Below are positions 1,750-18,335 of a stretch of DNA of 64,000 nt, one piece after another. Each line of letters opens with the position of its first letter. Position 1 is the first letter of the stretch. The position numbers were made by a program, and so were the translations under genes. The stretch is taken from the NCBI GenBank assembly GCA_034422795.1, contig DAOUJK010000022.1, positions 70,556-134,555 of the forward strand, in the 5' to 3' direction. A model generated the notes under the pieces. The model saw nothing but the letters and a program-made list of their open reading frames with translations, searched no databases and was not told the DNA's origin. The stretch comes from Dehalococcoidia bacterium. Its GTDB lineage: Bacteria; Chloroflexota; Dehalococcoidia; Lucifugimonadales; Australimonadaceae.

Positions 1750-1932
1750 AAGGCACAGGTTACCATGCAGCCCCTTGAGCTGTGGACAAGGAGAGCCCGG
1801 CCCACTGTCGAGGTGCGGTGTAGCGCTGTCCGGGTTGGTTATGGCACGGGGATGCGCTGCCAAGCGCCAGTCGCGGAGGGAACGGGGGGAGGGGATAGAG
1901 AAAGGGAGGAATGATGCTGTCGGGAACGCGAC

Positions 1933-2778
1933 GTGCCGATACCTGAGTCCAGGTTATCCCGGTGGAGCCATCATCAGGCTGCGACTGCCTTTACGCAGGC
2001 GCACCTCCCTATCCGGGCAGTCCTGCACGCCTACAGATGGCCCTCGGACATCAAGTACGAAGTCTTCCTCCAAGGGTCCTACAAGAACGACACGAACCTC
2101 GGCGGCGACAGTGATGTCGACGTGGTGGTGCGGTTGAACCAGCGGCTCAGGCCACGGGTCGCCGAGCTCTTCGGTCAGCGGTTGCAGGACAGCGCCTCCC
2201 ATCAGGGGGCATACCGACGATGGAAGTCTTTCAGGGACCATGCGCTCAAGGCGATGAGAGCCGGGTTTGGGAATGCCGCCGAGAGTGGCCGCAAGACCGT
2301 GAAGGTGCCGAAGGGGAAACTTCCGGCGGATGCCGATCTCGTAGTCACGCTGCGCTACAAAGAGGGCATAGCGTTTTACCTACAAGACGAGGAACGCTGG
2401 ATCGTCAGCTTTCCGCAGCAGCACTACAATCAGGGTCAGAAGAAGGAAGAGGCTACAGACCACCGATTCAAGAGGGCCATCCGCATGTTCAAGGCTGCCC
2501 GGAACCGGCTGGTCGAGAAGAAGGTGCTCGCTAAGAGCGCTGCCCCCTCCTACTTTATCGAGTGCCTGCTCTACAATGTTCCCGACAGCCTATTCGCACC
2601 GAAGCTGGCCCCGACGTACACGAGTGTCCTCGACTGGTTGAGGAGGGCGCACCTCAGGGAATTCAAATGCCAGAACGGAAGAGTGGACCTGTTCGGGCCG
2701 GGGCGGGAGCAGTGGACCCAGAAGAGGGCGCGGGCGTTCGTAGGGGCACTACAGGTCCTGTGGGAGGCGGGGGGCTGA
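1933..2778 (+). CDS. SMODS / CD-NTase-like nucleotidyltransferase
   Basis: GTG start. Motifs seen: GSYKNDTNLGGDSDVDVVV (GS...D-x-D), a third acidic motif LPADADLVV, and a C-terminal helical region with SYFIECLLYNVPDSLF. That last motif is typical of stand-alone SMODS-type NTases as I recall them. The family call comes from motif memory, not from a search. Confidence 0.6.
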   Translation: MPIPESRLSRWSHHQAATAFTQAHLPIRAVLHAYRWPSDIKYEVFLQGSYKNDTNLGGDSDVDVVVRLNQRLRPRVAELFGQRLQDSASHQGAYRRWKSFRDHALKAMRAGFGNAAESGRKTVKVPKGKLPADADLVVTLRYKEGIAFYLQDEERWIVSFPQQHYNQGQKKEEATDHRFKRAIRMFKAARNRLVEKKVLAKSAAPSYFIECLLYNVPDSLFAPKLAPTYTSVLDWLRRAHLREFKCQNGRVDLFGPGREQWTQKRARAFVGALQVLWEAGG

Positions 2779-2791
2779 GGATTCCATCGCC

Positions 2792-2820
2792 TTGACAGAT
2801 GACCCCTTAATCACCACAAT
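2792..2820 (+). promoter_or_regulatory. candidate sigma70-type promoter of the RHH-MTase operon
   Basis: TTGACA (2792-2797), a 17-nt spacer, then CACAAT (2815-2820), about 30 nt upstream of the RHH start. Confidence 0.4.
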
Positions 2821-2849
2821 GATGCAGAATTCATCACCTGCGTGAAGCA

Positions 2850-3044
2850 ATGGATGGGAAGACCATCAACAAGGACATCTCTCGCCTGACCGTTACCCTG
2901 GGCGAAGGCCAAAGAGCCGCCTTGGAGTCGATAGCGAGCCAGAATGGCACAACGATTGCTTTCGTGGTTCGCTACGCGCTTCGTAGGTTCATCGAAGAAC
3001 ACGGAGAAAATCCGTTGACGCTAAGGTTCCCAAGTGAACAATAG
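2850..3044 (+). CDS. ribbon-helix-helix (CopG-family) DNA-binding protein, possible controller protein
   Basis: 64 aa. ISRLTVTLGEGQRAALESIASQNGTTIAFVVRYALRRFIEEH fits a beta-strand plus two helices (RHH pattern). It overlaps the MTase start by 11 nt. Confidence 0.7.
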   Translation: MDGKTINKDISRLTVTLGEGQRAALESIASQNGTTIAFVVRYALRRFIEEHGENPLTLRFPSEQ

Positions 3045-4089
3045 AAACAGGAGAGGCCAAACCCCAGGCCACGGAAGGAAAGAGACATCGCCGGACCTTA
3101 GTCAGGAGCTAACGCCGGCATTTCAAACTGACCTAGGTCGCATGTACCAGGGGGATCTGGGACAGGTCCTTCGGCAGCGTCCTCTGACCGCATATAGGGG
3201 CCAAGTCCAGCTGATACTGACATCGCCTCCGTTCCCGCTCAATAAGAAGAAGAAGTACGGCAACCTGACCGGCGATGCTTACTTGAAATGGCTGACGGGG
3301 TTAGCCCCGCTATTGCGGGCATATCTGAAGCCAGAGGGATCCATAGTCTTGGAGCTCGGCAATGCTTGGAATCCTGGTAGTCCCACCATGTCAACCTTGC
3401 CCCTCAGGGCGCTACTGGGATTCCTGGAAGCCGGCGAACTGAATCTTTGCCAGGAATTCATCTGCTTCAATCCTGCTCGGCTTCCGACGCCGGCGCAATG
3501 GGTCAACATAGAGCGTACCCGCGTCAAGGACTCTTTCACGAGGGTTTGGTGGATGTCTCCAGGGGAACGCCCCAAAGCAGATAACAAGAAAGTTCTGACT
3601 AAGTACAGCAAGAGCATGCAGGACCTGCTGCGTAAAGGGACTTACAACTCTGGGCATCGCCCGTCTGGACACAACATAGGGTCAAAGTCATTCCTTTCAG
3701 ACAACGGTGGCGCAATCCCTCCCAATGTACTAGTCCCTGTAGCAGAGAACGAACCTCTCCCATTATTCGAAGTCCTGCCAATTGCAAACACCCGGGCTAC
3801 AGACGAGTATCAGGAGTACTGTAGCAGCAATGGATTACCAGTTCATCCTGCTAGGATGCAGGAAAAGTTGGCAGAGTTTTTCGTCGAGTTCTTGACAGAC
3901 GAGGGTGACATAGTCCTAGACCCCTTCGCTGGCAGCAACACGACAGGGGCGATTGCTCAGAGGCTCCGGCGCCGATGGGTGTCTGTCGAGCTCAACTCAG
4001 AATACGTTGGAGGAGCTGAGGCCCGGGTGCGACCAGATCTGATCGATGGCACTATGCCTGATCGTCCGTCTGAGCTCTCAATCCACTAA
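3034..4089 (+). CDS. beta-class N4-cytosine/N6-adenine DNA methyltransferase (SPPF type, probably m4C)
   Basis: Catalytic motif IV is LILTSPPFPL near the N-terminus. The AdoMet motif I is VLDPFAGSNTTG near the C-terminus. This IV-before-I order defines the beta class (N6_N4_Mtase family). Confidence 0.85.
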   Translation: MNNRNRRGQTPGHGRKETSPDLSQELTPAFQTDLGRMYQGDLGQVLRQRPLTAYRGQVQLILTSPPFPLNKKKKYGNLTGDAYLKWLTGLAPLLRAYLKPEGSIVLELGNAWNPGSPTMSTLPLRALLGFLEAGELNLCQEFICFNPARLPTPAQWVNIERTRVKDSFTRVWWMSPGERPKADNKKVLTKYSKSMQDLLRKGTYNSGHRPSGHNIGSKSFLSDNGGAIPPNVLVPVAENEPLPLFEVLPIANTRATDEYQEYCSSNGLPVHPARMQEKLAEFFVEFLTDEGDIVLDPFAGSNTTGAIAQRLRRRWVSVELNSEYVGGAEARVRPDLIDGTMPDRPSELSIH

Positions 4090-4120
4090 GTTCGACTTCG
4101 AACCAGAACCGAGGAATGGC

Positions 4121-4942
4121 ATGGCGACTGTCCCAGTTCGAGGGTTGTTGATGGAAGGAGAGTGGACTCCTCCCATTGATGTCCTCCTGGAGCACAGCGC
4201 TTCGCTACCCAGGATCATTGTGGATGCGAAGGACCATTTGTTTCCTGGCAGCTACTTGTGCAGGTTCGATCTACCTCTTGCAAGAGCGAACGACCTTGAA
4301 GAAGCCATTAGGGCTGACCTCGCGCTAGTGGCGAAGAGTTTTGACGCGTGGTATCTGTTGTTTGTGATGCCTGCGCGAACCGTAGACGTGGACTCGCTTG
4401 TTTCCAAATTGGAATCCGCAAGGTTGGTTGATCTTGGCGATAGAGCAGCTCGCCATCTTGCGAAGGGAATTGATGAGTTGGACGAGGGGGAAGCCCGACT
4501 TCTCGTCCGCGAAGTCCCGGGATTGGTCGTAGTTACCGACAATCCTGATCATGAGTGGCACGAGACCTTCACCGCTGCTCATCTAGAGGTGGAAGTCATC
4601 GTCGTCGAACCTTTTCCCATTCAGGACGATGGTTATGCGATTCGACTAGGCGGTCAAACTACTGCAGAAGATGACGTATGCATTATCGCCACTTGTGAGG
4701 AACATCCGACCTTCTCAACATGCTTGTTAGTAAACTGGGTCGATTCCATCGCAAGAGTGCCACCAGGTGACATCTCTCTCTCCTACAGAGGCATAGTGAC
4801 CCATTGGGAATTACGTCCAGGCGATCCTGTCTGGCAATTGCACGCCGTTGGTACCTTCCCTCTACTGGAGTCGCCGCCATACGAAATCGTTGAAGGCACG
4901 GACGGCACTTTTTCAATCAGGAAGCAAGAGAACAAGGCTTGA
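4121..4942 (+). CDS. hypothetical protein (candidate cognate nuclease or specificity partner; no recognisable domain)
   Basis: 273 aa. GAGGAA RBS at 4111-4116, and co-directional 31 nt after the MTase stop. I recognise no motif with confidence. Confidence 0.6.
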   Translation: MATVPVRGLLMEGEWTPPIDVLLEHSASLPRIIVDAKDHLFPGSYLCRFDLPLARANDLEEAIRADLALVAKSFDAWYLLFVMPARTVDVDSLVSKLESARLVDLGDRAARHLAKGIDELDEGEARLLVREVPGLVVVTDNPDHEWHETFTAAHLEVEVIVVEPFPIQDDGYAIRLGGQTTAEDDVCIIATCEEHPTFSTCLLVNWVDSIARVPPGDISLSYRGIVTHWELRPGDPVWQLHAVGTFPLLESPPYEIVEGTDGTFSIRKQENKA

Positions 4943-4958
4943 GGGAGGTGCTGCAGTC

Positions 4959-6455
4959 ATGGAACTGGAAATCGGGACCGAAATCATAAGGTCGTACAAG
5001 CGCCTTTCGTATTCAGCCTGGCATGCCTTGGCGGAATTTGTGGACAACTCTGTCCAGTCCTTCTTGAACAATAGATCGATTCTAGAGGACTCTTACGGAG
5101 AATCTGGAACAGGTTTAACGGTAGATATCCGCTACGAACGCGCCAATGGAGGACGGTTGACGATCAGAGACAATGCGATGGGGATGTCGGAGGTTGAGCT
5201 GTCGAATGCCCTGTACATTGGGAAGAGGCCCGAGATTGACTCGGGACTTTCTGAGTTTGGGATGGGACTCAAGACCGCCGCCTGCTGGTTCGGCGACCAA
5301 TGGGCCGTACGGACCAAGAAGCTAGGAGACACAACTGCTCATACTGTGTACTTCGACGTAGAGCAAGTCGCGAACGGCGACCTAGAACTGCGTCATGAAA
5401 CTTCGTCAGAGCGGCCGGAAGAACACTATACTGAGATAACAATAACTCAACTCAACCAGCGTTATTATGGGAGATCTATCCAACGAATAAAACTGTTCTT
5501 GGGTTCGATGTATCGGACTTACACCGGGAACGGGTTGTTGCGGCTCTTGTACAACGGTGAATCGCTGTCTTGGGTGTCTCCAATCGAAGGAAACAATGTT
5601 CATACTTCGAATGGGAAGCGGTCCTTTGAACACTTTTCTTTTCAGTTGGGCACAAGAGAAGTACGTGGGTGGATAGCTGTCATGGAGCGCGGAAGTCGTG
5701 CGAATGCGGGACTTACCATCATTCGTCGCGGCCGGGTACTTGTCGGCTGGCCCGACTCTTGGAGGCCGCAGTCAATCTTCGGCCAGTTTGAAGGCTCCAA
5801 CGATCTTGTCAACCAGAGGCTTGTCGGCGAGATAAACCTGGATGGTTTCAGTGTGAGTCACACTAAAGATGAGATCCTATTCGAAGATGACGACGAAGAA
5901 ACGCTGGAGCGAGAGCTCTTCCGGATAGCTGAGCCGTATATTGCGATCGCCCAGTCGTATCGAAAACGAGGAGTCCGTAGAGACCCTCCAGGAAGATCTG
6001 TGGTTACCTCAGCGATAGGAATGTTGGAGGATGAACTGCACTCCCAACGACTGCAGTCAGTGTTGGCGGCGAATGGAGACATACCGAGAGCGAGATATGA
6101 GACCTTCGCCTATCCCATGATACGGGCGGTAACAGGAACAGAGCCTCGAGGGACCTACACACTGGAAGGACTGCTCCTGAACATTTTTGTTTCCGATGAG
6201 TTATCAGACAGAGACCCGTATCTGGGGATCGCAATCGAATCTGACGATACCTTGAATGTCGTGATCAACATGAGCCATCCCCATGTTGGAGACTTGCGTG
6301 ACCGCATGGCAGTGCTCAACTATCTGAAGGAGTGCACCTTTGAAGGGATTGCTCAATGGAAAGTCGAAAAGACGTGGCACGCTGATGATCCATCGTTGAT
6401 TAGGGCAATCAAGGACTCCTTGCTGAGAATAGGCCGTTCTCTGAACGACTCATAG
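4959..6455 (+). CDS. GHKL (Bergerat-fold) ATPase, HATPase_c_3 / prokaryotic MORC-like
   Basis: N-box ALAEFVDNSVQSF, G1 box TIRDNAMGMS, G2 box LSEFGMGLKTAACWFG. The C-terminal region (GLTIIRRGRVLVGWP...LVGEINLDGFSVSHTKDEI) looks S5-like. GAGGGAGG RBS at 4941-4948. Confidence 0.8.
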   Translation: MELEIGTEIIRSYKRLSYSAWHALAEFVDNSVQSFLNNRSILEDSYGESGTGLTVDIRYERANGGRLTIRDNAMGMSEVELSNALYIGKRPEIDSGLSEFGMGLKTAACWFGDQWAVRTKKLGDTTAHTVYFDVEQVANGDLELRHETSSERPEEHYTEITITQLNQRYYGRSIQRIKLFLGSMYRTYTGNGLLRLLYNGESLSWVSPIEGNNVHTSNGKRSFEHFSFQLGTREVRGWIAVMERGSRANAGLTIIRRGRVLVGWPDSWRPQSIFGQFEGSNDLVNQRLVGEINLDGFSVSHTKDEILFEDDDEETLERELFRIAEPYIAIAQSYRKRGVRRDPPGRSVVTSAIGMLEDELHSQRLQSVLAANGDIPRARYETFAYPMIRAVTGTEPRGTYTLEGLLLNIFVSDELSDRDPYLGIAIESDDTLNVVINMSHPHVGDLRDRMAVLNYLKECTFEGIAQWKVEKTWHADDPSLIRAIKDSLLRIGRSLNDS

Positions 6456-6461
6456 GATGAG

Positions 6462-7700
6462 ATGATCACTAGGATTATCATAGGGCTTAGGAAATCGTTT
6501 ACGACCGCGTTTCCCAATCCAATTTGGCTTGCCGTGAGCCTCTTGGTTGCAGCGCTACTCGGCGTACTACTGGAGCTGTTTGGATTCCAAGTCATTCCCA
6601 GAGATCGAGACCCGTTCTATTTCTTGTTGGCCACTCTGGCGGCTACTTTGGGTACAGTTCTCGTTCTGGCCTTTACGTTTGCCCTTGTTGCTGCCCAAAT
6701 CGCAGCTCGATACAGCCAATTGCTGTCTGACCGAGTTCTGGGCGGCTGGGCCCTTTGGTATGCAGCACCCTTTGCGGTGGGTATTCTTATGCCTCTATTC
6801 TTACTTCACGGCCGTTTTCATCTATGGTCCGCACAGTGCAGCCTGATCCTGGGCGCATACTGCATAGTGTCACTGTTCCCTTTCGCGGCATCGGTGAGAA
6901 GGCTCCTGTCTGTTTATGAGGCCATTCAAGAGAAGGCTGGCGACCTAGAAAATGAGAAGGCACAAAATGATTGCTATAGAGTTGCTAACGAAATAGGCAA
7001 TATCTGCTTGGGTGCATTGAATCTCAGGGATTTCGAAACATTCGAACGCGGAGTGCGTCGGTTGGTGCAATCATCCCAGACAGATGGATTACATTATTTG
7101 CGACCAACAGTCGCTACAGAGATTAGAAGGATGATTCTGAGGACGGCAGATGATCTATTCGCATCCGAAATCTTGCTTCGTGCAGTGACAGAAATCGCAT
7201 TTGATCATAGATCGGAGTCGGATGCCCTTACTCAGGAACAAGTGCTCGATGAAACTTTGGGCGCATACGAATCGGTGAGTGTATCCGCGCTCCAACAGCA
7301 GAGTGACACCATTGATCTCTTACTCAGGGAGAGTGAACGGGCGATTGAACAATGCAAGACGAAGGAGGCAGCCAAACTCCAGCATCTGCTTTACATTATT
7401 GGTGGTCGCGCAATTTCGGGGCTCCCGATGGACTTGGATTGTGGAGGGCCGGTCCTTGGAGCAATTGGGAATCTGATCCAAACGGAGTATCGCTCCTCGC
7501 TGGAGCCAGCGGAGCGAGATGATCTAATCACTGCTGCTGTTATGCAGATCGAGTCTCTCGGCACAGCAGCAAGGGCAGTTAACAAGAACAATGTGACGGT
7601 TTCCGCAGTGACCGAACTCCAACGAGCGGAAAGGACCTTCGAAGACGAAACCGAAGGAGTGATACGGAGCATTAGGGCATCCTTATCTGAGTTGAGGTGA
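6462..7700 (+). CDS. membrane protein: four N-terminal TM helices plus ~260-aa helical cytoplasmic domain (DUF2254-like architecture)
   Basis: Hydrophobic segments: IWLAVSLLVAALLGVLLELFGF, FYFLLATLAATLGTVLVLAFTFALVAA, WALWYAAPFAVGILMPLFLL, CSLILGAYCIVSLFPFAA. It starts 6 nt after the GHKL ATPase stop. Confidence 0.7.
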   Translation: MITRIIIGLRKSFTTAFPNPIWLAVSLLVAALLGVLLELFGFQVIPRDRDPFYFLLATLAATLGTVLVLAFTFALVAAQIAARYSQLLSDRVLGGWALWYAAPFAVGILMPLFLLHGRFHLWSAQCSLILGAYCIVSLFPFAASVRRLLSVYEAIQEKAGDLENEKAQNDCYRVANEIGNICLGALNLRDFETFERGVRRLVQSSQTDGLHYLRPTVATEIRRMILRTADDLFASEILLRAVTEIAFDHRSESDALTQEQVLDETLGAYESVSVSALQQQSDTIDLLLRESERAIEQCKTKEAAKLQHLLYIIGGRAISGLPMDLDCGGPVLGAIGNLIQTEYRSSLEPAERDDLITAAVMQIESLGTAARAVNKNNVTVSAVTELQRAERTFEDETEGVIRSIRASLSELR

Positions 7701-7779
7701 TCCGGGGAGGTCCACCCCTTGGGTATTGACAGACCCCTAAGCCACATCTCGAAGATGGTTCTACATGTGGGGAGAGACC

Positions 7780-8664
7780 CTATCGCATTGGAGGCTGGGA
7801 TAGCGGTAGTCCTCTAAATGGGTCGTTCTCCCATATATGTTTCACATATTCAAAGAGCCCTTCCACTGGCTTGCGTTCATGGTAGTAGAGGCCACTTAGT
7901 AACTGATCGCCTGCACGGGTGAGTACGATTTTGCCTGCACTGATCTGTTCCCCTCTTCTGAATGGCACAACGAGCTCCCGTCCATGGTAGATGGCATGAA
8001 CACTCCCAATGGGAGGTACAGTCAATAGATAGCCGAACCCCGAATAGTTTATTAGCCCCAGGTCTTCAAGTTGATTGGCGTAGTAGTAGTTCATCCCATG
8101 ATCCGTATAGATTTCGTCTGTGAGGTCAAATACCAGCACGCGATATCCACTTCCACCAATTGCGTCCCAAGCAAAGTCACACAGATTTTGGAACACTTGG
8201 ACATCACTGCTCTCCAGGTTAGCAACCAGATTAACGGTTGCACGGGAGAACGATCCCTGACGGTTGGCTTCGCCAGCGAGAATCCTGGCCCACAGCTGAT
8301 GCATCTGTTCATCTGACACAGTGCTGCACCGCTGAAAGAAGGTGGTGACCCAGTCGTCTTCCATGGTGACGGGGTCGGCATCGTCATTGAGGTGGGGTAG
8401 TGCCAGCGTGACGATGCTTTCGATGTTGCGTTGCTTTGCGACCTCCTCGTGAGCGAGTCGATTGGCAGCTCGTTGCAGCAACCCAGCGACCTCAACATCA
8501 GTATGGGCCTCAGCAACCCTCCGGATATGCTGAGCCTTCGCTTCGGCTTCAGCCATCCGGAGGGTTTGGCTGGGGTCGAAGTGTCGACCGATGGCGTTCG
8601 ACACTTTCTCTATCAGTAGAGTGGCTGGGCGCGACAGGCCAAAGACCTCTAATCCTTCTGCCAC
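7780..8664 (-). CDS. DUF2806-like protein
   Basis: The central segment DDWVTTFFQRCSTVSDEQMHQLWARILAGEANRQGSFSRATVNLVANLESSDVQVFQNLC matches my recollection of the DUF2806 signature. It is convergent with the upstream operon. Confidence 0.5.
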   Translation of the reverse strand: MAEGLEVFGLSRPATLLIEKVSNAIGRHFDPSQTLRMAEAEAKAQHIRRVAEAHTDVEVAGLLQRAANRLAHEEVAKQRNIESIVTLALPHLNDDADPVTMEDDWVTTFFQRCSTVSDEQMHQLWARILAGEANRQGSFSRATVNLVANLESSDVQVFQNLCDFAWDAIGGSGYRVLVFDLTDEIYTDHGMNYYYANQLEDLGLINYSGFGYLLTVPPIGSVHAIYHGRELVVPFRRGEQISAGKIVLTRAGDQLLSGLYYHERKPVEGLFEYVKHIWENDPFRGLPLSQPPMR

Positions 8665-9442: not shown

Positions 9443-9606
9443 GCTTCCCGCCTCCAGCGGTAAACCGGAACTGCTCGCTGCGCCGCTCCCGCGATGGCGC
9501 GGAACGCCGCGCTCGCCCTGCCCACGACCCAGTTCGCCCGTCACCACGTAACTCGTTTCTCTGTACTACCCCCGCACCCCGCGCACCCCTGTTCGCCATG
9601 CGGGCC

Positions 9607-9642
9607 TCGTAAGGGGGGCCTGTGCGCGAGCCCCCCTTACGA
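9607..9642. other. perfect 12-bp stem hairpin (TCGTAAGGGGGG ... CCCCCCTTACGA), 12-nt loop
   Basis: Read directly, about 105 nt upstream of the start at 9748. Confidence 0.85.
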
Positions 9643-9747
9643 GACATGACGTTCCGCGTCGCGGAGCACGCATGCTGATACCCGGCCCCTGCGCCGTGGG
9701 AAGCACGGCGGGAGCCTGACGGACAGCCACCGTGGACGGAGACAAGG

Positions 9748-11397
9748 ATGAATCCGATAGACCGGGAGATACACGCGCTGCGCAGCCTGGCGTCGATGCC
9801 GTTCCTCGACGGTCAGGAGCTGGCCGCCGTCTCGGGCACGCCCCGACGCACCATGCACGATGCGGTGAGTGCCCTGAGGCGCAGGGGGCTCGTCGATGCG
9901 GTGCCGCACGCCATCGACCTGCTGGCCCCCACCCACCGCCTGTACGTGACGCGCAGGGGGCTGGAGCGGCTCTCCGAGTGCGAGGGGGAGAGTGTGCAGC
10001 AAGTCCTCGACCGCTACCCCGTCTCCGCGCACTGGCGGCGCATCCTGCTGGGGCGCCTCGATGCGGTTGCCGTCATCTACCGGCTCGCGCGCAGGATCGC
10101 GGAGGCCGAAGGCCCCTTGCTCCTGTGCTGGCACCGGAGCGCGCCGGTGGACGCGTCGATCACCCTGGACGACGGGCGCGTCGTCGGCATCGTGCGGCAG
10201 GGAGCGACGTCGGACAGGACGGGCTTCTCGAAGCGGGTGTGGCGGCTCCTCGACGGTTCCCAGCCCGGCGCCGTGCTCGTGCTCGCGCCGGACGAGGTGC
10301 GCCTCCGGCATGGCGCCGGGCTGTTCAGGCGCGCGTCGATGCACGTGTTCCTGGCCCTGGAGCGCGATGCCGTCCTCTCCTCACGCGGCGAGCGGATATG
10401 GCGCCTGCCCTCCCTCGACAACGCGGTCGACCTCTGCACGGCCCTCTCGGGCGCTCGGCTCCGCGGGTCCCCGGTGGAGGAGCGGCGGCTGTCGAGGCCG
10501 CTCGTGCCCGCCGATATCCGGATACCCGACGCGCTCCTGACCGTCCCCGACTATCTTCTCCCGGTGGTGCTGAAGCCGGCATTGAAGCGGACGCTGGACG
10601 TGCTGGGCGACTGGCCGTGGCTCATGTCGAAGGATCTGGGCGGGCTGCTGGGGATCTCGAAGGGGCGCACGTCGCAGCTGACGGTCCCGCTGGTGAGCGC
10701 CAGGCTCGTCAGCAGGGTGGAGATGGGAGGGCGGGAGCGGCTGGCGCTGACGGACTGGGGGCTGGCGGTCCTGGCTCGCCGCGACCGCACGTCTGTCGGC
10801 GGGCTGCGGCGGCAGTGGAGCGTCGAGTCGGCCGGGGGAAGGGGTCCGCTCACGTGGCGCAGGGTATCGGGGAGGCGGAGCAGGCTGCTGGCGCGGAACA
10901 TGGCCCACACCGACGCGGTGCACGGATTCCTGGCGCAACTGGCGACGCAGGCGAGGGCCAAAGGGCATCGGGTGGTGCAGATCGACCCGGCGCACCGGGC
11001 GTCGCGGCACTTCCGGCACCGGGGTGAGATGCGGGCGGTGCATCCCGACGCGTTCGGCATGCTGCGGGTGGGCCGCGCGAGGAAGCCCTTCTTCCTGGAG
11101 TGGGAGCACCGGGCGGTGCGTCCCGGCACGATGGCGGCGCGCCTCGCGCCGTATCTCCGCTACTACGCGACGCGCGAGCCCGTCGACGACCACGGGGCGG
11201 AGCCGGTCGTGCTCATGGTCTTCGACGATGCGGCGGTCGAGGCGCGGTTCCTGGTGGTCGCGCGGCGGGAGATGGCGCGCAACCGCGTCCGTCTACCGCT
11301 GTTCGTGTCCCACCGGGGGAGGCTTGAGGCCGTGGGGCCGATGGGGGCGGCGTGGCGCAGGCCCGGCGTGCTGGAGCCGGGGTACGCCTTCGAGTGA
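9748..11397 (+). CDS. replication-relaxation family protein (two wHTH-containing halves)
   Basis: The C-terminal half has a Replic_Relax-like signature: NMAHTDAVHGFLAQL...HPDAFGML...PFFLEWEHR...LAPYLRYY. Two wHTH-like segments are present (LDGQELAAVSGTPRRTMHDAVSALRRRGLV and LMSKDLGGLLGISKGRTSQLTVPLVSARLV). Confidence 0.65.
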   Translation: MNPIDREIHALRSLASMPFLDGQELAAVSGTPRRTMHDAVSALRRRGLVDAVPHAIDLLAPTHRLYVTRRGLERLSECEGESVQQVLDRYPVSAHWRRILLGRLDAVAVIYRLARRIAEAEGPLLLCWHRSAPVDASITLDDGRVVGIVRQGATSDRTGFSKRVWRLLDGSQPGAVLVLAPDEVRLRHGAGLFRRASMHVFLALERDAVLSSRGERIWRLPSLDNAVDLCTALSGARLRGSPVEERRLSRPLVPADIRIPDALLTVPDYLLPVVLKPALKRTLDVLGDWPWLMSKDLGGLLGISKGRTSQLTVPLVSARLVSRVEMGGRERLALTDWGLAVLARRDRTSVGGLRRQWSVESAGGRGPLTWRRVSGRRSRLLARNMAHTDAVHGFLAQLATQARAKGHRVVQIDPAHRASRHFRHRGEMRAVHPDAFGMLRVGRARKPFFLEWEHRAVRPGTMAARLAPYLRYYATREPVDDHGAEPVVLMVFDDAAVEARFLVVARREMARNRVRLPLFVSHRGRLEAVGPMGAAWRRPGVLEPGYAFE

Positions 11398-12583: not shown

Positions 12584-15500
12584 CTACCGCACCACCCGCC
12601 ACACGTACTCCACGTCCCGTATGTCCTCCGCAAGGAACCGCTGGCACAGCGCCAGCTCATCGCCCTCCGGCGTCCGACCGGACGACGTCTGTGCCGCGGC
12701 GATGGCGGCCTCCATCTCGTCCCAGCAGTTGTCCCCGAAGCGCGACTCGAAGCGCCGCCACCCCACGGTGTCGTACACCGCCACGAGCACGAGCCGCCCC
12801 CCAGCAACAACCGGGCGGGAGGTTACGAGGAAGCCGGAGCCGGCGCCGCTGGCGTTCACCGCGCGCAGCCGCACCGAGCCGATAGTCACGCCCGCTATGG
12901 TGTAGGACGTGGTGCCGGGGCCGCTGTTCGGGATGGGGATCCACGTGCTCCCATCGAGCGAATACTCATACCGCACGATGCTGCTGTCGCCTGGGTTGCT
13001 CCACCTCAGCGTGATGCCGCCCTGCCCCGCCGTCACGGTCAGCCCCATGGGGGTCGCAGGGGGCGGCTGCCCGGGGGTGGCGCTGGTCGCCGCAGACGGG
13101 CCCGCGTTGCTGGTGCCGCGCACGGCCCGCAGTTCGATCCTGTAGGTGGTGCCGTTGGTCAGGCCGGTCACGGTGTACGAGGTGGTGGTCGCGCCGCTGC
13201 CGCTGATGTCGGTCCAGTCGGGGCTCCAGCTGCTGCCGCCGTCCGCGCTCACCCGGTACTGGTACTTGCTGATCGCCGAGTTGCCGGGGTTGTTCCAGCG
13301 CAGCGAGGCCTGGGTGTCGCCAGCCGTGGCCCTCAAGCCGGTCGGGGTCGCCGGGGGCGGCACTCCGGCGACGGCGGTGACGCTGGCGGCCGGGCCCGCG
13401 TTGCTGGTGCCGCGCACCGCCCGCAGCTCGATCCTGTAGGTGGTGCCGTTGGTCAGGCCGGTCACGGTATACGAGGTCGTTCCCGCGCCGCTGCCGCTGA
13501 CGTCGGTCCAGTTGGGGCTCCAGTTGGTCCCGCCGTCCGCGCTCACCCGGTACTGGTACTTGGTGATCAAGGAGTCGCCAGGGTTGGTCCAGGTCAGCCT
13601 GACCTGAGTGTCGCCGGCCTGGGCCGACAGGCCGCTCGGGGCCGCCGGGGGCTGCTGTCTGGGAGTGGCGCTGACGTTGGCGCTCGCCGTGCCCGGCGTG
13701 TTGCCCTGATCGATCACCGCGCGCACCTGGAACGTGTAGGCCGTGCCGTTGGTCAGGCTGCCCACGGTGTGCGAGGTCGTGCCTGCGCCGCTGCCGGGGA
13801 TGTCGGTCCAGGCCGGCCAGTTGGTCCCGCCGTCCGTGCTCTGGCGGTACTGGTACTTGCTGATCGCCGTGTTGCCGGGGTTGGTCCAGGTCAGCGTGAC
13901 CTGGCCGTCGCCGGCTGCGGCCTGCAGGCCGGTCGGCGCGGGCGGGCCGGTCTTGGTGTAGCCGTAGATGCCGATCTTCTGCGGATTGTGGGCGGTGCTC
14001 CACGCCGTGACGGCTCGTGCCCTCGTCAGCCCGGCGTCGTGGATGGTGAAGCCTGACGCCGCGCCGGAATCCTCCCCGTTGTCGTCGGTGCGACGGAGAT
14101 CGAACGTCCCGCTACCGCCGCTGGCTGAGTCGAACACGACCCAGTACGTAGTGCCTTCGGTCAGGTCGATGCCGGCGCCGCTGGCCGTGAACGTGTTGCC
14201 CCCGCCGGACAGCGCGGCCGGCTCGGTCAAGTCCGTGCAGGTCGTGCCCGGCACGTGGGAGGAGCCGCTGGAATCGTTGTTACAGACCTTGACACTGTAG
14301 CCGCTCGGCCCGGGAGGGGTTCCCGAGCCACCCGCGCCGAGAATGACGTAGCTCAGCTTGAAGCCCGCATCGTGAGACCCGGTGGTGAAGGCCTGCGCGG
14401 CGTCATTGGTGACGATGTTCGTACCGGCAGCAGTGCCGATGTTCTTGTTGAGGTTCTTGACCAGTTGCCCCGCGGGCGTGGCGCTGACGCTGGCGGCAGC
14501 GCCATTGTCGGTCCCGGCAACGGCCCGCAGCTCGAACGTGTACTTCGTCCCGTTGGTCAGGCTGCTCACGGTGTGGGTGGTGGTGGTCGCGCCGCTGCTC
14601 GGGACGTCGGTCCAGGCCGACCAGGTGCTCCCGCCGTCAGTGCTCTGGCGGATCTGGTACCCGGTGATCGTCGAGTCCGAGGGGTCGGTCCAGTTGAGCA
14701 CGACCTGGCCGTCGCCGCCCTGCGCCGTCAGGCCCTGCGGGGCCGCCGGTCCCGCCGCTGTCTCGGTGCCATACAGGGCGAACCGCGACACGCTGCCGCT
14801 AGGACTTCCGAAGGCGGCCGTGCTGTTGTGGGCCCTGCGCGATGAGCCGTTGGTGATGCTCCAGCCTGTCAGTCCGTCGCTGTCCTCGTGGTAGTTCCCG
14901 GCCCTGCCGAGTCTGAAGGTGCTGGCAGCCTCGCCTTGGTCCCAGACCAGGGCGTAGGTGGTGCTTGCGCTGAGGCTCTCGGGGGTCGTCAGGGTGAAGG
15001 CGTTCAGCCCGGCGGCAAGGGCGGACGGTTTGTTGAAGGTCGCCAGCTTGGCGGCTCCCGACCCGGTCGACCACAGCTCCAGCTCGTACGTGGTCGGCGG
15101 AGTGCCGAGGGTGTCGACTGTGATTACTGCCCGGGTCAGGCTGAAGGATTGGGACCCGGTGGTGAATTGCGTGTGAATGTCCCTGCTGACGTTATCTCCG
15201 AAACTGGCGCTGGCAACGACGTTGCCGACCAGTTTGCGGGCCGAAGAGGCCTTCGGCCCGCCCCGGATGGCCATCATGAGACTCGAACCCAGTGTCTGCC
15301 AAGTCGTGAGGCCTACTCCTCTGACCAGTCTGCCGTTTGCGATGCTCCAGCCGCTGGAAGCGCCGCGGTCCTCGTCGTCTGAACTGGTGGTGCTCAGCTG
15401 CGTTGAGAGATTTACGCTCTGAGTCGAATCGACGTACAGGATGTAGGTGCCTGCGTCCAGGTCGATGCCGCCTGAAGGAGCGGTGAAGGTGTTGCGCCCG

Positions 15501-17050: not shown

Positions 17051-17211
17051 CGCGTCAGCCCCCGTGGCGGGATGTGAAGGCTACGCGGGGAGCGAAAGCC
17101 GTAAGCCGCCCGCTTGGAGCCCCAGTACACGGGATCATCTGGTTCCGGGCTAGTGTGACATCGGGACGCGCGGCGGGTCACTCCCGGAAGGGGCGTGTAC
17201 GACGTTGTACC

Positions 17212-17249
17212 CCTATGGAGTGTATAAGTGCATTTATGCACGCTTTGGC
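17212..17249. repeat. lox-like recombination site, left (15-8-15; outer arm degenerate)
   Basis: CCTATGGAGTGTATA-AGTGCATT-TATGCACGCTTTGGC. The spacer is the reverse complement of the right-site spacer. Confidence 0.6.
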
Positions 17250-17312
17250 CTTCCGGCTGTGGACGTGCGTAAGACTTCGACCGTAGAGGAGATAGCCAAT
17301 GCCCCCAATGAC

Positions 17313-18335
17313 ATGCCCGTGCGGGATGGCACGGCCATACCCGGTAACGCCGCCTCTATCGCACTTGGAGCCCCCCCGCAGCGGACCGAAGGCCTGACGG
17401 AATCAGACGCCGGCAACCTGAACGCCGTTCTCGGCCATGAGATGGCCCCTAACACAGCGATGAACTACCGCCTGCAGTGGCGGAGCTTCGTCGCGTGGGC
17501 ATTGAAGAAGGGCGTGCAGGCCCTGCCTGCCGACCCGGGTCAGGTTGCCGCCTACCTGGCGAACCGCCTTGAGGAGCACGGCCACAAGCCCGCGACCCTG
17601 CAGATGGCCGCTGCCGCCATCGCGTACATCCACAGGACCACTGGACTCGTCAATCCCTGCGCCTGGCCGGAGGTCAAGAGGACGCTCAGAAGCGCCATCC
17701 GCAAAGCGGGAAAGGCTCAGAAGCAAGCCCAGGCGCTCACCGCGGAGGCGCTGGCAGCCATCCGGTCAACCGCGCGCGAACCCCGACCTGGGCGAGGTGG
17801 AAGACTGGAGAGTCCCCGCGTCGCCAGGCGCAGGGGAGACCTTGACGTTGCGTTGGTTTCGCTCATGCGCGACGCGATGCTGAGGGTGTCCGAGGCCGCG
17901 GCCCTCCAGTGGAGGGACATCGAGACCGAGTCGGATGGGACGGGACGTCTCCTGATCAGACGCTCCAAGACAGACGTCGACGGAGATGGTGCAGTCGCCT
18001 TCCTGTCCACTCAGACCATGGAGGCGCTGAGCCGGATACGAAACGGCGCACCCGGCTCCGAGAGCGTGTTCGGACTCCGGCCCAACCAGATGGCGCAGCG
18101 CATCAAGAAGGCGGCTCTGGCCGCAGGCCTGGGGGACGGCTTCAGCGGCCACTCTCCCCGAGTGGGTATGGCGCGCGACCTCGCGAGGGCGGGGATCGAG
18201 CTGCCGAGTCTCATGATCGCAGGGCGGTGGCGCACGCCTGGAATGCCGGCCCACTACATCCGCAACGAAACGGCTGGCAAGGGCGCAGTAGCGCAGTTCT
18301 ATCGCCTCAGCGCCCCCGCCTTCAGCGCTACCTGA
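17313..18335 (+). CDS. Cre-like tyrosine site-specific recombinase
   Basis: SGHSPRVGMARDLARAGIELPSLMIAGRWRTPGMPAHYIRNE parallels Cre SGHSARVGAARDMARAGVSIPEIMQAGGWTNVNIVMNYIRN (the His, Arg and Tyr catalytic positions). MLRVSEAAALQWRDI...LLIRRSKTD parallels Cre LLRIAEIARIRVKDI...IHIGRTKT. Start codon uncertain: ATG at 17313 or an upstream GTG. Confidence 0.85.
   Translation: MPVRDGTAIPGNAASIALGAPPQRTEGLTESDAGNLNAVLGHEMAPNTAMNYRLQWRSFVAWALKKGVQALPADPGQVAAYLANRLEEHGHKPATLQMAAAAIAYIHRTTGLVNPCAWPEVKRTLRSAIRKAGKAQKQAQALTAEALAAIRSTAREPRPGRGGRLESPRVARRRGDLDVALVSLMRDAMLRVSEAAALQWRDIETESDGTGRLLIRRSKTDVDGDGAVAFLSTQTMEALSRIRNGAPGSESVFGLRPNQMAQRIKKAALAAGLGDGFSGHSPRVGMARDLARAGIELPSLMIAGRWRTPGMPAHYIRNETAGKGAVAQFYRLSAPAFSAT

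Follow-up and report, generated by a model that had tools for sequence, protein, structure and literature searches.

Organisation of the locus

The window, the 64,000-nucleotide stretch of DNA that was analysed, carries at 2850–7700 on the forward strand five tightly packed, co-directional genes. Their products are, in order, an RHH-like protein, a beta-class SPPF methyltransferase (MTase), a 273-aa protein, an ATPase of the GHKL type and a protein with four transmembrane segments (4-TM protein; Table 1). ORF calling on this strand reproduced the gene calls of a preliminary description of the same DNA, as well as the spacing given there: an 11-nt overlap between the RHH-like and MTase genes, then intergenic distances of 31, 16 and 6 nt. 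The overlap is probably genuine, since no in-frame start other than the GTG at 3034 lies 5′ of PAFQTDLG, a stretch conserved in distant MTase homologues; the ATG of the third ORF likewise agrees with the N-termini of its homologues. The genes lie in low-GC DNA, as had been noted (GC 0.48–0.55 over 2750–8500, against ~0.60 on the left flank and 0.65–0.74 on the right), and a convergent gene at 7780–8664 falls within the same low-GC stretch. The arrangement is more than chance, because another nine loci, in which GHKL identity ranges from 51 to 94%, show MTase–unknown–GHKL–4-TM in the same order (in one, L003, the 4-TM gene is split, and another, L009, ends at a contig edge).

Table 1. Features of the cassette and its upstream region in the window.
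Feature	Position	Strand	Basis
CD-NTase-like nucleotidyltransferase	1933..2778	+	PADLOC Cyclase, E 1.5e-78
Sigma-70-like promoter element, TTGACA-17-CACAAT	2792..2820	+	Motif match; counterpart in L001
Two 20-nt direct repeats (TTAATCACC.../TTCATCACC...)	2807..2849	+	Overlap the -10 element and leader
Small RHH-like (Arc/CopG-type) protein, 64 aa	2850..3044	+	Weak profile matches
Beta-class DNA MTase (SPPF ... DPFAGS), 351 aa, GTG start	3034..4089	+	PF01555 and PADLOC MTase_II
Pseudo-nuclease, 273 aa: BamHI-like (D...ExE) nuclease homologue, then C-terminal beta-rich domain	4121..4942	+	hhalign, Foldseek, residue comparison
MORC-family GHKL+S5 ATPase, 498 aa, conserved C-terminal domain	4959..6455	+	HATPase_c_3, MORC signature
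4-TM protein, 412 aa: DUF2254-like membrane module and ~260 aa cytoplasmic alpha-solenoid	6462..7700	+	Hydrophobic segments, AF2

The promoter-like element from which the operon had been proposed to start is present, and is retained as TTGACA-17-CATAAT in an 83%-identical cassette (L001), but the motif alone is not above chance (four sites found, 3.9 expected from shuffles). The direct repeats that follow are a possible operator for the RHH-like protein. This protein has a strand-helix-helix sequence pattern and weak matches to RHH_9 (E 0.087), a RelB-like profile (E 0.064) and an Arc-like PHROG (E 0.009); it is presumed to be the transcriptional controller of the operon, and its gene was seen in three loci, those of the window, L001 and L095.

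The assignment of the second gene as a beta-class SPPF methylase was confirmed by its motifs and by profile matches (N6_N4_Mtase, E 2.7e-30; PADLOC MTase_II PDLC03323, E 2.5e-79). The enzyme is probably an N4-cytosine MTase.

A derived clade of a MORC-linked family

Sequence comparison shows common descent of the cassette core (MTase, nuclease-fold protein and MORC) with a widespread family in which an SF2 helicase is normally present and the D...ExE nuclease is intact. About 80 loci of this MTase–(SF2 helicase)–nuclease–MORC family were sampled from many phyla; in a set of 92 loci, ~58 have the order MTase–helicase–nuclease–GHKL, at least ~16 have MTase–nuclease–GHKL, and nine, or ten with the later addition of L095, have MTase–nuclease–GHKL–4-TM. 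In a neighbour-joining tree of the GHKL protein the 4-TM loci form one monophyletic group, the boundary of which lies between homologues that have the 4-TM gene (P0063, 51% identity; P0058, 52%) and one that has the helicase (P0067, 45%). Three linked differences set the sub-clade of the window apart: the helicase is absent, the nuclease site is degenerate, and a 4-TM gene follows the MORC gene. The MTase family and its motifs are common to all three clades, and both the MTase and the ATPase motifs are intact in that of the window. All cassette genes are under purifying selection (dN/dS 0.08–0.18 overall; MTase 0.09–0.15, GHKL 0.08–0.09, 4-TM 0.15–0.18).

The preliminary description had proposed an undescribed system. 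Such a system is not named in PADLOC, NCBIfam, the PDB or the searched literature; it is not, however, an isolated invention but a derived clade of a predicted restriction-modification (R-M)-like family. Operons of broadly this type, in which R-M genes are linked to MORC, were predicted computationally by Iyer, Abhiman & Aravind 2008 (PMC2292703), to whom the preliminary description had aptly pointed. According to the available part of that paper, those operons, like the family described here, place a MORC-signature GHKL+S5 ATPase beside a DNA methylase and a restriction-endonuclease-fold protein, include an SF2 (Rad25/ResIII-like) helicase, which the sister clades also carry, and show a sporadic, mobile spread across phyla. 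The clade of the window differs from them in lacking the helicase and the E-D-ExK-type residues and in adding a 4-TM/alpha-solenoid protein; no membrane partner is described in that part of the paper, and the whole class is a prediction. Experimental work on MORC-associated R-M operons was not found in the searched literature.

The nuclease-fold protein and the MORC ATPase

The third ORF, previously considered unassignable, can be assigned as a homologue of the nuclease subunit of the family (hhalign against helicase-type nuclease homologues, E 5e-23 and 1e-18). The motif pattern, together with a weak Foldseek match of the AF2 model (pLDDT 74) to MunI as the top hit (E 0.023), points to a nuclease fold; profile searches of the intact nuclease homologues against the PDB and Pfam gave nothing significant. 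In the 75 loci outside the TM clade, the residues of the parent motif E...D...ExE...Q (E26, D66, E81, E83 and Q96) are conserved at 100%, and H92 is among the nuclease residues conserved at 95–100%. Among 19 TM-clade members E26, E81 and H92 are kept in none, E83 in four and Q96 in two, and D66 (18 of 19) is the only parent motif residue retained. The divergence is not decay, because the gene has a dN/dS of 0.15. T139, D140 and E163 are invariant residues specific to the clade. The protein is presumed to be a DNA reader or adaptor. A role for it as the endonuclease partner of a Type II R-M system was rejected, the invariant acidic residues of the family having been lost.

The ATPase (HATPase_c_3, E 3.6e-18), described previously as MORC-like, is a true prokaryotic MORC: the signature GhXhhpXXRhl, found in 89 of 92 members, reads GLTIIRRGRVL in the window protein. 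At least 95% of 91 family members keep E26, D29, N30, D71, N72, G75, G101, G103, K105 and K303, and residues of the C-terminal domain, including N437 and H440-P441, reach the same level across all clades.

These conserved positions bear on the possibility that the cassette is still a DNA-cleaving, ATP-dependent restriction system, in which a rebuilt site (D66, D140, E163) or another subunit, for example the MORC C-terminal domain, would cut, with the 4-TM protein serving just to place the enzyme at the membrane, the site of phage DNA entry. The retention of D66, the clade-invariant residues and the GHKL C-terminal conservation are each compatible with such a system, and MutL-type GHKL proteins, which may bear C-terminal endonuclease sites, offer a precedent. 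We nonetheless consider it unlikely, given the joint loss of the independently conserved E26, E30, E81, H87, H92, Q96 and Y105. The GHKL C-terminal motif is also present in clades with an intact separate nuclease, and is thus unlikely to be the cutter, and none of the five proteins matches a nuclease family in domain or profile searches.

The membrane partner

The product of the last gene has, as previously described, four TM segments and a large helical domain in the cytoplasm, confirmed by four hydrophobic segments and an all-helical AF2 model (pLDDT 85.8). No homologue was found in the PDB or BFVD at E < 1e-3, Foldseek giving generic helical repeats only; PADLOC gave no matches, and no relative among known pore-forming or defence effectors was detectable. 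Matches to DUF2254 are sub-threshold in 13 of 25 family members, the window protein likewise; the DUF2254 family has no function on record.

The gene lies directly 3′ of the GHKL gene in all ten TM-clade loci examined, with the MTase alongside, and in no other clade, so that the proposed GHKL–4-TM linkage held; in the loci read, the two genes are separated by 1 to 24 nt or overlap by 4 nt. It is the sole conserved gene at this position, and only in the TM clade. For 17 of 30 metagenomic 4-TM clusters, the longest contig is equal in size to that of a TM-clade GHKL cluster, implying that the two genes share a contig. The 4-TM protein is a clade-specific partner and a candidate effector. Membrane proteins of other defence systems may serve as sensors or anchors rather than effectors; here, conservation of TM2–TM4 (0.77–0.82) above the cytoplasmic domain (0.55) argues for a function within the membrane over that of a passive anchor.

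The same conservation weighs against non-nucleolytic exclusion or silencing. In that reading, MORC loaded by the pseudo-nuclease at unmethylated sites would clamp and compact foreign DNA, much like eukaryotic MORCs acting on chromatin, and the 4-TM protein would tether the complex at the membrane, near the point of DNA entry. The invader would then neither replicate nor be transcribed, with its DNA left uncut and the cell left alive, by a BREX-like logic. In a passive tether one would not expect the membrane helices to be better conserved than the soluble domain, and the need of the sister clades, with the same MORC, for a nuclease and helicase is left unexplained. The loss of nuclease residues and helicase with retention of ATPase and MTase fits this reading, as does the modelled alpha-solenoid domain, which resembles an interaction scaffold, and looping and clamping of DNA by R-M-operon MORCs is proposed in the available part of Iyer et al. 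(PMC2292703). On balance it seems to us rather improbable.

Mobility and genomic context

The cassette is found as a discrete unit in unrelated genomic contexts, and insertion sequence (IS) elements or recombinases flank several loci. Homology between the window and L001 has sharp edges at 1930 and 7706. The preliminary description had delimited a five-gene unit at 2792–7700, but in both loci the mobile unit begins at 1930 with the CD-NTase-like gene, which scores 217.8 bits against NCBIfam DS2_2_antiphage, under the cut-off of 350. Only an 80-aa remnant of this gene was called in L095, and it is absent from L002–L004, L010, L089 and L090; the gene is not among the conserved components of the system. 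A role for the 4-TM protein as a CBASS effector was rejected, the protein being conserved in loci that have no CD-NTase gene. The neighbourhood in the window further includes an HEPN/NTase pair, a DUF2806/Abi_alpha-like gene, an integrase, a serine recombinase and a tRNA-Leu; related loci have GmrSD and transposases nearby.

Mobility of this kind might also suggest a module that is not primarily antiviral, either a selfish addiction module, in which loss of the MTase would expose host sites and release a membrane toxin, or an epigenetic or regulatory module on a mobile element. R-M systems can act as addiction modules, and the sharp edges and flanking recombinases would suit such a unit. Addiction and defence are, however, compatible with each other, the parent family and neighbourhoods are typical of defence islands, and viral contigs rarely carry the family (two GHKL and no 4-TM matches in IMG/VR), which argues that it is not a phage weapon. 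We regard a primarily non-antiviral role as highly unlikely.

Comparison with known systems and proposed mechanism

With Type III R-M (Mod and Res) the family shares a beta-class methylase and ATP-dependent recognition, and the sister clades also share an SF2 helicase of the ResIII type and a PD-(D/E)xK-like nuclease; unlike Type III systems, the family splits helicase and nuclease into two proteins and adds a MORC ATPase, and the window has lost both Res functions. A small DNA-binding protein overlapping the MTase start and the MTase_II match recall Type II R-M with a controller (C) protein, but the window appears to lack an active endonuclease, its controller resembles RHH proteins and not the HTH C-proteins usual in such systems, and two conserved genes, MORC and 4-TM, are added. 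BREX ties self-marking by methylation to a non-cleavage outcome, and PrrC–EcoprrI couples an abortive-infection effector to an R-M system; the methylase is the only component homologous to either, and coupling in the window would run from the MORC ATPase to the membrane protein. Multi-pass membrane proteins in operons with a cytoplasmic sensor or enzyme also occur in CBASS/Pycsar (TM effectors), Kiwa (KwaA) and Zorya (ZorAB), although none matches the 4-TM protein in sequence or fold. A GHKL ATPase controls the output of MZA (MzaB) and of GHKL-Shedu (VcSduA / paraMORC3, PMC12137116); MzaB shares only the N-terminal ATPase fold with the window protein (28.7 bits, cut-off 850), and the window has neither the Z1, AIPR and MutL partners nor a DUF4263 nuclease domain.

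We tentatively favour, at somewhat less than even confidence, an R-M-derived, MORC-driven defence module on a mobile island, in which a methylation-gated sensor has a membrane output instead of cleavage. The MTase would be the source of the self-mark, modifying host sites, probably as m4C, and the pseudo-nuclease would bind and read unmethylated sites of incoming DNA, and would load or activate the MORC ATPase for ATP-dependent dimerisation and clamping. MORC would then contact the solenoid domain that the 4-TM protein exposes to the cytoplasm, and the strongly conserved membrane helices of this protein may in turn make or open a lesion or channel. The infected cell would depolarise and stop growing or die, an outcome taking the place of DNA cleavage. 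Autoregulation by the RHH-like protein would allow methylation to be set up ahead of the sensor/effector arm. Such an abortive-infection-type membrane output is consistent with the loss of nuclease and helicase.

The parent kind of operon has already been predicted by computation; the clade of the window departs from it in the absence of the helicase, the degenerate nuclease site and the 4-TM partner. The coupling of a MORC ATPase to a 4-TM protein suggests an undescribed route from unmethylated foreign DNA to a defence response.

Operon layout, composition and neighbourhood

ORF calling recovered the five co-directional genes reported in the preliminary description; these mechanical calls all lie on the forward strand, with an overlap of 11 nt and then gaps of 31, 16 and 6 nt. 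The operon also lies, as had been claimed, in an AT-richer segment, with a GC content of 0.48–0.55 between 2750 and 8500, against ~0.60 on the left flank and 0.65–0.74 on the right. The promoter-like element proposed ahead of the first gene holds up in part: it is kept in the related cassette of locus L001, where it is nearer to the consensus than in the window, but such sites occur at chance frequency (4 against 3.9 expected) and its presence is statistically unremarkable. Two direct repeats overlap its −10 region and lie ahead of the gene for the putative controller.

Features in and around the cassette (window positions)
Feature	Position	Strand	Remarks
Nucleotidyltransferase with HEPN-like C-terminal part	689–1354	−	overlaps next gene
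HEPN protein	1351–1863	−	
CD-NTase-like nucleotidyltransferase	1933–2778	+	PADLOC Cyclase E 1.5e-78; PHROG 18746 E 7.6e-45
Promoter-like element	2792–2820		
Direct repeats	2807–2849		two, 20 nt each
Gene 1, RHH-like protein	2850–3044	+	ORF call
Gene 2, MTase	3034–4089	+	ORF call
Gene 3, formerly unknown protein	4121–4942	+	ORF call
Gene 4, GHKL ATPase	4959–6455	+	ORF call
Gene 5, four-TM protein	6462–7700	+	ORF call
DUF2806 protein	7780–8664	−	DUF2806 E 2.5e-29; weak Abi_alpha E 2.2e-4
Replic_Relax/MarR-like protein	9748–11397	+	
Repeat-rich protein, 1488 aa	12584–17050	−	fibronectin type III and SWM repeats
Tyrosine integrase	17205–18335	+	
Large serine recombinase	18828–20657	+	ORF overlaps tRNA-Leu
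tRNA-Leu	20405–20489	−	

The CD-NTase-like gene upstream of the operon also matches the NCBIfam model DS2_2_antiphage (217.8 bits, under the cut-off of 350), and no recognisable effector adjoins it. The window and L001 are homologous from 1930 to 7706 (83.5% over 5.8 kb), and the mobile unit in these two loci therefore includes this gene. It has diverged more than the rest of the unit (69% amino acid identity, with a dS of 1.2 versus ~0.5), is represented by an 80-aa call, a remnant, in L095, and is absent from the other loci of the clade that carries the four-TM gene (4TM clade). We treat it as a fellow traveller of the MORC cassette. We reject the idea of the four-TM protein as effector of the upstream CD-NTase because the pair is not conserved, the four-TM and MORC genes being retained in at least six loci without the CD-NTase-like gene; no nucleotide-sensing domain was detected.

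The overlapping gene pair divergent from the CD-NTase-like gene looks like a HEPN/MNT-type toxin–antitoxin or defence pair. The DUF2806 gene, convergent with the operon and in the same low-GC stretch, does not follow the cassette in L001 and so is probably a candidate defence gene in its own right. The low-GC region adjoins the Replic_Relax protein, both recombinases and the tRNA-Leu gene, suggesting an integrated mobile element; the first ~20 kb of the window look like one such element or a stack of several. Repeat-rich surface proteins similar to that of the window are found near the cassette in L002 and L095.

By its context, namely defence-island neighbours and carriage on a mobile element, the cassette is a putative anti-phage defence system. 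A mainly selfish or regulatory module would likewise be at home on a mobile element, a reading that we regard as very unlikely. A decaying cassette is excluded by the dN/dS ratios, which place all cassette genes under selection, with the MTase and ATPase staying intact.

The putative controller and the methyltransferase

Family scans gave only weak matches for gene 1 as an RHH/Arc-like protein (E 0.009–0.09). The gene is confined to the closest relatives of the window, and in its place the remaining 4TM-clade MTases are extended at the N-terminus by ~140 aa (STQRAYSRQW..W..NG...LPA....V..YL). This extension, which resembles the SAM-like core-binding domain of tyrosine recombinases, is found in L002 (5681–7081), L003 (5701–7098), L004 (5702–7120), L010 (5626–7086) and L089/L090 (3699–5096), loci that lack a separate RHH gene.

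Gene 2 matches N6_N4_Mtase (E 2.7e-30) and the PADLOC model MTase_II (E 2.5e-79), and its family and its motifs SPP[FY] and DPFxGS are common to all three clades delineated below. The SPPF motif is typical of N4-cytosine enzymes. Downstream of the L001 cassette, a 172-nt fragment (13292–13463) matches the central part of the window MTase gene (3718–3887) at 73% identity and is probably a relic of another copy.

The ATPase carries the MORC signature

Gene 4 matches HATPase_c_3 (E 3.6e-18), and its full-length relatives number in the thousands. The eukaryotic MORC silencing factors presumably descend from prokaryotic MORC ATPases. The MORC-like character initially ascribed to the protein is borne out at each of the places examined: the residues of GHKL motifs I–IV (E26, D29/N30, D71/N72/G75 and G101/G103/K105) are kept at 95% or more across 91 family members; the basic residue of the S5 region is the conserved K303, in the sequence SHTKD; and the motif GhXhhpXXRhl, whose form in the window is GLTIIRRGRVL, is shared by 89 of 92 homologues. 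By this last motif Iyer, Abhiman and Aravind (2008; PMC2292703) defined the MORC family, and the ATPase is thus predicted to belong to the family as they delimit it, S5-domain signature included.

Searches of the PDB with the single GHKL sequence gave no match, and those with a profile only marginal matches to the Hsp90/HtpG ATP lid. In the C-terminal domain (residues ~416–490), which is without family assignment, conservation over the three clades reaches 95% or more at S416, Y421, N437, H440-P441, K485-D486 and L489-R490.

Three operon architectures share the methyltransferase and ATPase

The wider family was sampled with the window ATPase as bait; genomic context was examined for 16 protein matches, and 80 loci, one genome per species, were fetched from 316 matches spanning Chloroflexota, Actinomycetota, Bacteroidota, Acidobacteriota, Proteobacteria, Planctomycetota and others. 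Purpose-built profiles sorted the loci into three architectures. In the first (~58 loci) the order is MTase, SF2 helicase, a ~260-aa protein and GHKL ATPase; in the second the MTase is followed by a ~270–300-aa protein and the ATPase, with ~16 clear cases, mostly from one Bacteroidota clade, further loci of this class ending at contig edges. The third comprises MTase, a ~270-aa protein, ATPase and four-TM protein, and is found in the window and in L001–L004, L009, L010, L089, L090 and L095.

A simple distance tree of the GHKL proteins, built by neighbour joining, unites the loci with the four-TM gene in one clade. The boundary of this clade is sharp: ATPases with 51–52% identity to that of the window are accompanied by the four-TM gene, whereas the nearest outgroup, at 45%, has a helicase. 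Outside the clade no conserved gene lies 3′ of the GHKL gene, and no SF2 helicase was found in the window or in any locus within it. The helicases of the ~58 sister loci match PADLOC PbeA-like and ResIII/Rad25-type models; they are not those of the third operon type of Iyer et al., as the motif DThhQXuRhFG occurs in 0 of 58.

In eight loci of the helicase-less Bacteroidota clade (L022, L038, L043, L049, L068, L076, L083 and L088) a longer MTase of ~419 aa precedes the nuclease gene and matches the family profile weakly (E 1e-11 to 1e-14). Here the methylase appears to have been exchanged, while the nuclease and MORC genes stayed.

Gene 3 is related to a predicted nuclease whose putative catalytic pattern it has lost

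The third ORF had been described as unassignable, and family scans (Pfam, PADLOC, NCBIfam, PHROGs) indeed give no match; hhalign revises this description, aligning the protein over its full length with the ~260-aa protein of the helicase-type loci (probability 99.5%, E 5e-23; 99.1%, E 1e-18). Across 75 loci outside the 4TM clade this protein has an invariant pattern of E26, D66 (mostly as PD), E81-x-E83 and Q96, with Y105, H87 and H92 conserved at 89–95%. The D...ExE arrangement is the BamHI-type variant of a PD-(D/E)xK site.

Conservation of the nuclease pattern within and outside the 4TM clade
Residue	In 75 other loci	In 19 4TM-clade sequences	Usual state in 4TM clade
E26	100%	0/19	replaced by G/S
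D66	100%	18/19	kept
E81	100%	0/19	replaced by F
E83	100%	4/19	replaced by V/A
H92	95%	0/19	replaced by S
Q96	100%	2/19	replaced by R/K

An AF2 model of gene 3 (pLDDT 74) has an N-terminal alpha/beta domain followed by a beta-rich C-terminal domain. Its top Foldseek matches, all weak, are the restriction and repair nucleases MunI (E 0.023), Bax1, EndoMS and MUS81, and profiles of the intact homologues found nothing significant in the PDB or Pfam. Assignment to a PD-(D/E)xK-like nuclease fold is only moderately supported.

With a dN/dS of 0.15–0.19, gene 3 is under purifying selection. Because the catalytic pattern is lost and selection is maintained, we conclude that it is a putative pseudo-nuclease, kept for a function other than catalysis, of which DNA binding or assembly is the most plausible. 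D66 persists, and the 4TM-clade proteins have invariant residues of their own, T139 and D140; an enzyme that still cleaves, through a rebuilt or relocated active site and with the four-TM protein as its membrane anchor, would be a different reading of the cassette, and one we think unlikely given the other replacements.

The four-TM protein

A confident AF2 model of gene 5 (pLDDT 85.8) comprises four membrane helices, in agreement with four hydrophobic segments, and then an all-helical repeat domain of ~260 residues; the N-terminus is rich in K/R. The only likenesses of the helical domain are to generic ARM/HEAT or designed solenoids, and Foldseek searches of the PDB and BFVD returned generic designed-repeat, importin and TPR matches, none with E < 1e-3. 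Conservation is highest in TM2–TM4 (0.77–0.82, versus 0.55 in the cytoplasmic domain), with polar and aromatic residues among the conserved positions.

Pfam, PADLOC, NCBIfam and PHROGs gave no match for the protein, DUF2254 of Pfam included. Sub-threshold DUF2254 matches are nevertheless present in 13 of 25 family members (best E 4.7e-4), and a distant relative possessing the TM module passes the threshold (42.9 bits versus 28.8). Among 1.84 billion representative proteins, 371 relatives were detected with a profile, about a dozen of them full-length; the remainder, roughly 350, have only the membrane module in common and differ in their C-termini. Some of these relatives also match DUF2254, mostly below threshold.

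The proposed linkage of the ATPase and the membrane protein is supported by their conserved pairing: in the 4TM-clade loci the four-TM gene follows the GHKL gene, starting 1 to 24 nt past its stop or with a 4-nt overlap in those read. For 17 of 30 metagenomic clusters of the four-TM protein the longest contig has the same length as that of a 4TM-clade GHKL cluster, implying that the two are co-located. Scans of JGI metagenomes and IMG/VR found no relatives of the four-TM protein, so the question whether this gene occurs without a GHKL partner was addressed through the contig matches in the protein database and through the ten loci. The contig of P0178, a distant relative in the TM module, is short and IS-flanked, and its context uninformative. 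In L003 the four-TM gene is split into two overlapping ORFs (9530–9745 and 9631–10755), for which the gene caller gave a 188-aa product alone; this may be a frameshift or an assembly error, and may amount to a natural knock-out of the membrane partner.

Relation to known systems

The view that the operon corresponds to no named system stands after searches of the five proteins and their neighbours with PADLOC, NCBIfam, Pfam and PHROGs: among the five, beyond the weak gene 1 matches, only the MTase and part of the GHKL protein were matched, the latter to MzaB (28.7 bits versus a cut-off of 850, N-terminal 130 residues only). The suggested resemblance to a Type II R-M unit was not upheld, as no REase model matches and the putative nuclease-fold protein is without catalytic residues; a Type II system with a C-protein would have an active cognate restriction endonuclease, which the window appears to lack. 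MZA differs in having a full-length MzaB and the partners MzaA/C/D/E, none of which is in the window. CBASS pairs a CD-NTase with an effector that responds to its nucleotide signal; in the window a CD-NTase-like gene lies upstream of the operon, and elsewhere the four-TM/MORC genes are conserved without it. By the features tested, the cassette is not Type II or Type III R-M, MZA or GHKL-Shedu, and probably not CBASS.

Of the known kinds, the MORC-associated R-M operon, a purely computational prediction of 2008, comes closest. Iyer et al. predicted R-M operons in which MORC/paraMORC ATPases are joined by DNA methylases, SF2 helicases and RE-fold nucleases, the helicase being a partner in ~70% of the MORC-associated operons. 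The helicase-bearing sister loci fit this general description. The window has the MORC ATPase and, directly upstream in the operon, a DNA methylase (N6_N4_Mtase), but lacks the helicase, and its putative RE-fold protein has the catalytic residues E26, E81, E83 and Q96 replaced. It adds a membrane component, of which no description was found in the available text of that paper or elsewhere in the literature searched. Searches combining GHKL, MORC, HATPase_c_3, DUF2254 and DS-2 with defence gave no description of the dead-nuclease/four-TM variant; the literature searched likewise held no experimental work on the prokaryotic MORC family and no function for DUF2254.

The comparisons show that an R-M-like MORC family gave rise to the system; as judged from the protein sequences, the helicase and nuclease activities have been lost or are predicted to be disabled in the 4TM clade, and a membrane protein has been gained.

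Proposed mechanism and implications

In the mechanism which we propose, methylation would still define self, the pseudo-nuclease would read unmethylated DNA, the MORC protein would turn this reading into an ATP-dependent conformational signal, and the output would run through the four-TM protein. As that output we tentatively prefer a lesion or channel in the membrane, leading to an abortive-infection-type outcome, since constraint on the four-TM protein is strongest in its membrane helices. Non-cleaving exclusion by a membrane-tethered MORC clamp would be an alternative, which we consider improbable. The full sequence of events, in which an R-M lineage swapped DNA cleavage for a membrane effector, with a methylation-gated MORC, a dead-nuclease reader and a DUF2254-like four-TM protein that depolarises or kills the cell, is a possibility we hold with some reserve.

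The cassette (~4.9 kb, rising to 5.8 kb when the cyclase-like gene is counted) is small enough for direct cloning and testing. The three sister architectures of the family, with MTase and MORC in common and with helicase plus nuclease, nuclease, or dead nuclease plus membrane protein as the variable part, constitute a natural experiment, and their comparison could reveal how MORC acts on DNA and how its output can be rewired; the nuclease site has been lost in step with the acquisition of a membrane partner, a clean evolutionary switch that lends itself to testing. Were the membrane protein to act as effector, methylation-based self-recognition would be able to drive an abortive-infection response, and the membrane module would be assigned a role. 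Should the whole proposal prove true, this would be the first R-M lineage to exchange cleavage for a membrane effector, epigenetic self/non-self discrimination would be linked directly to abortive infection, and prokaryotic MORCs and the DUF2254-type membrane module would gain a first function.
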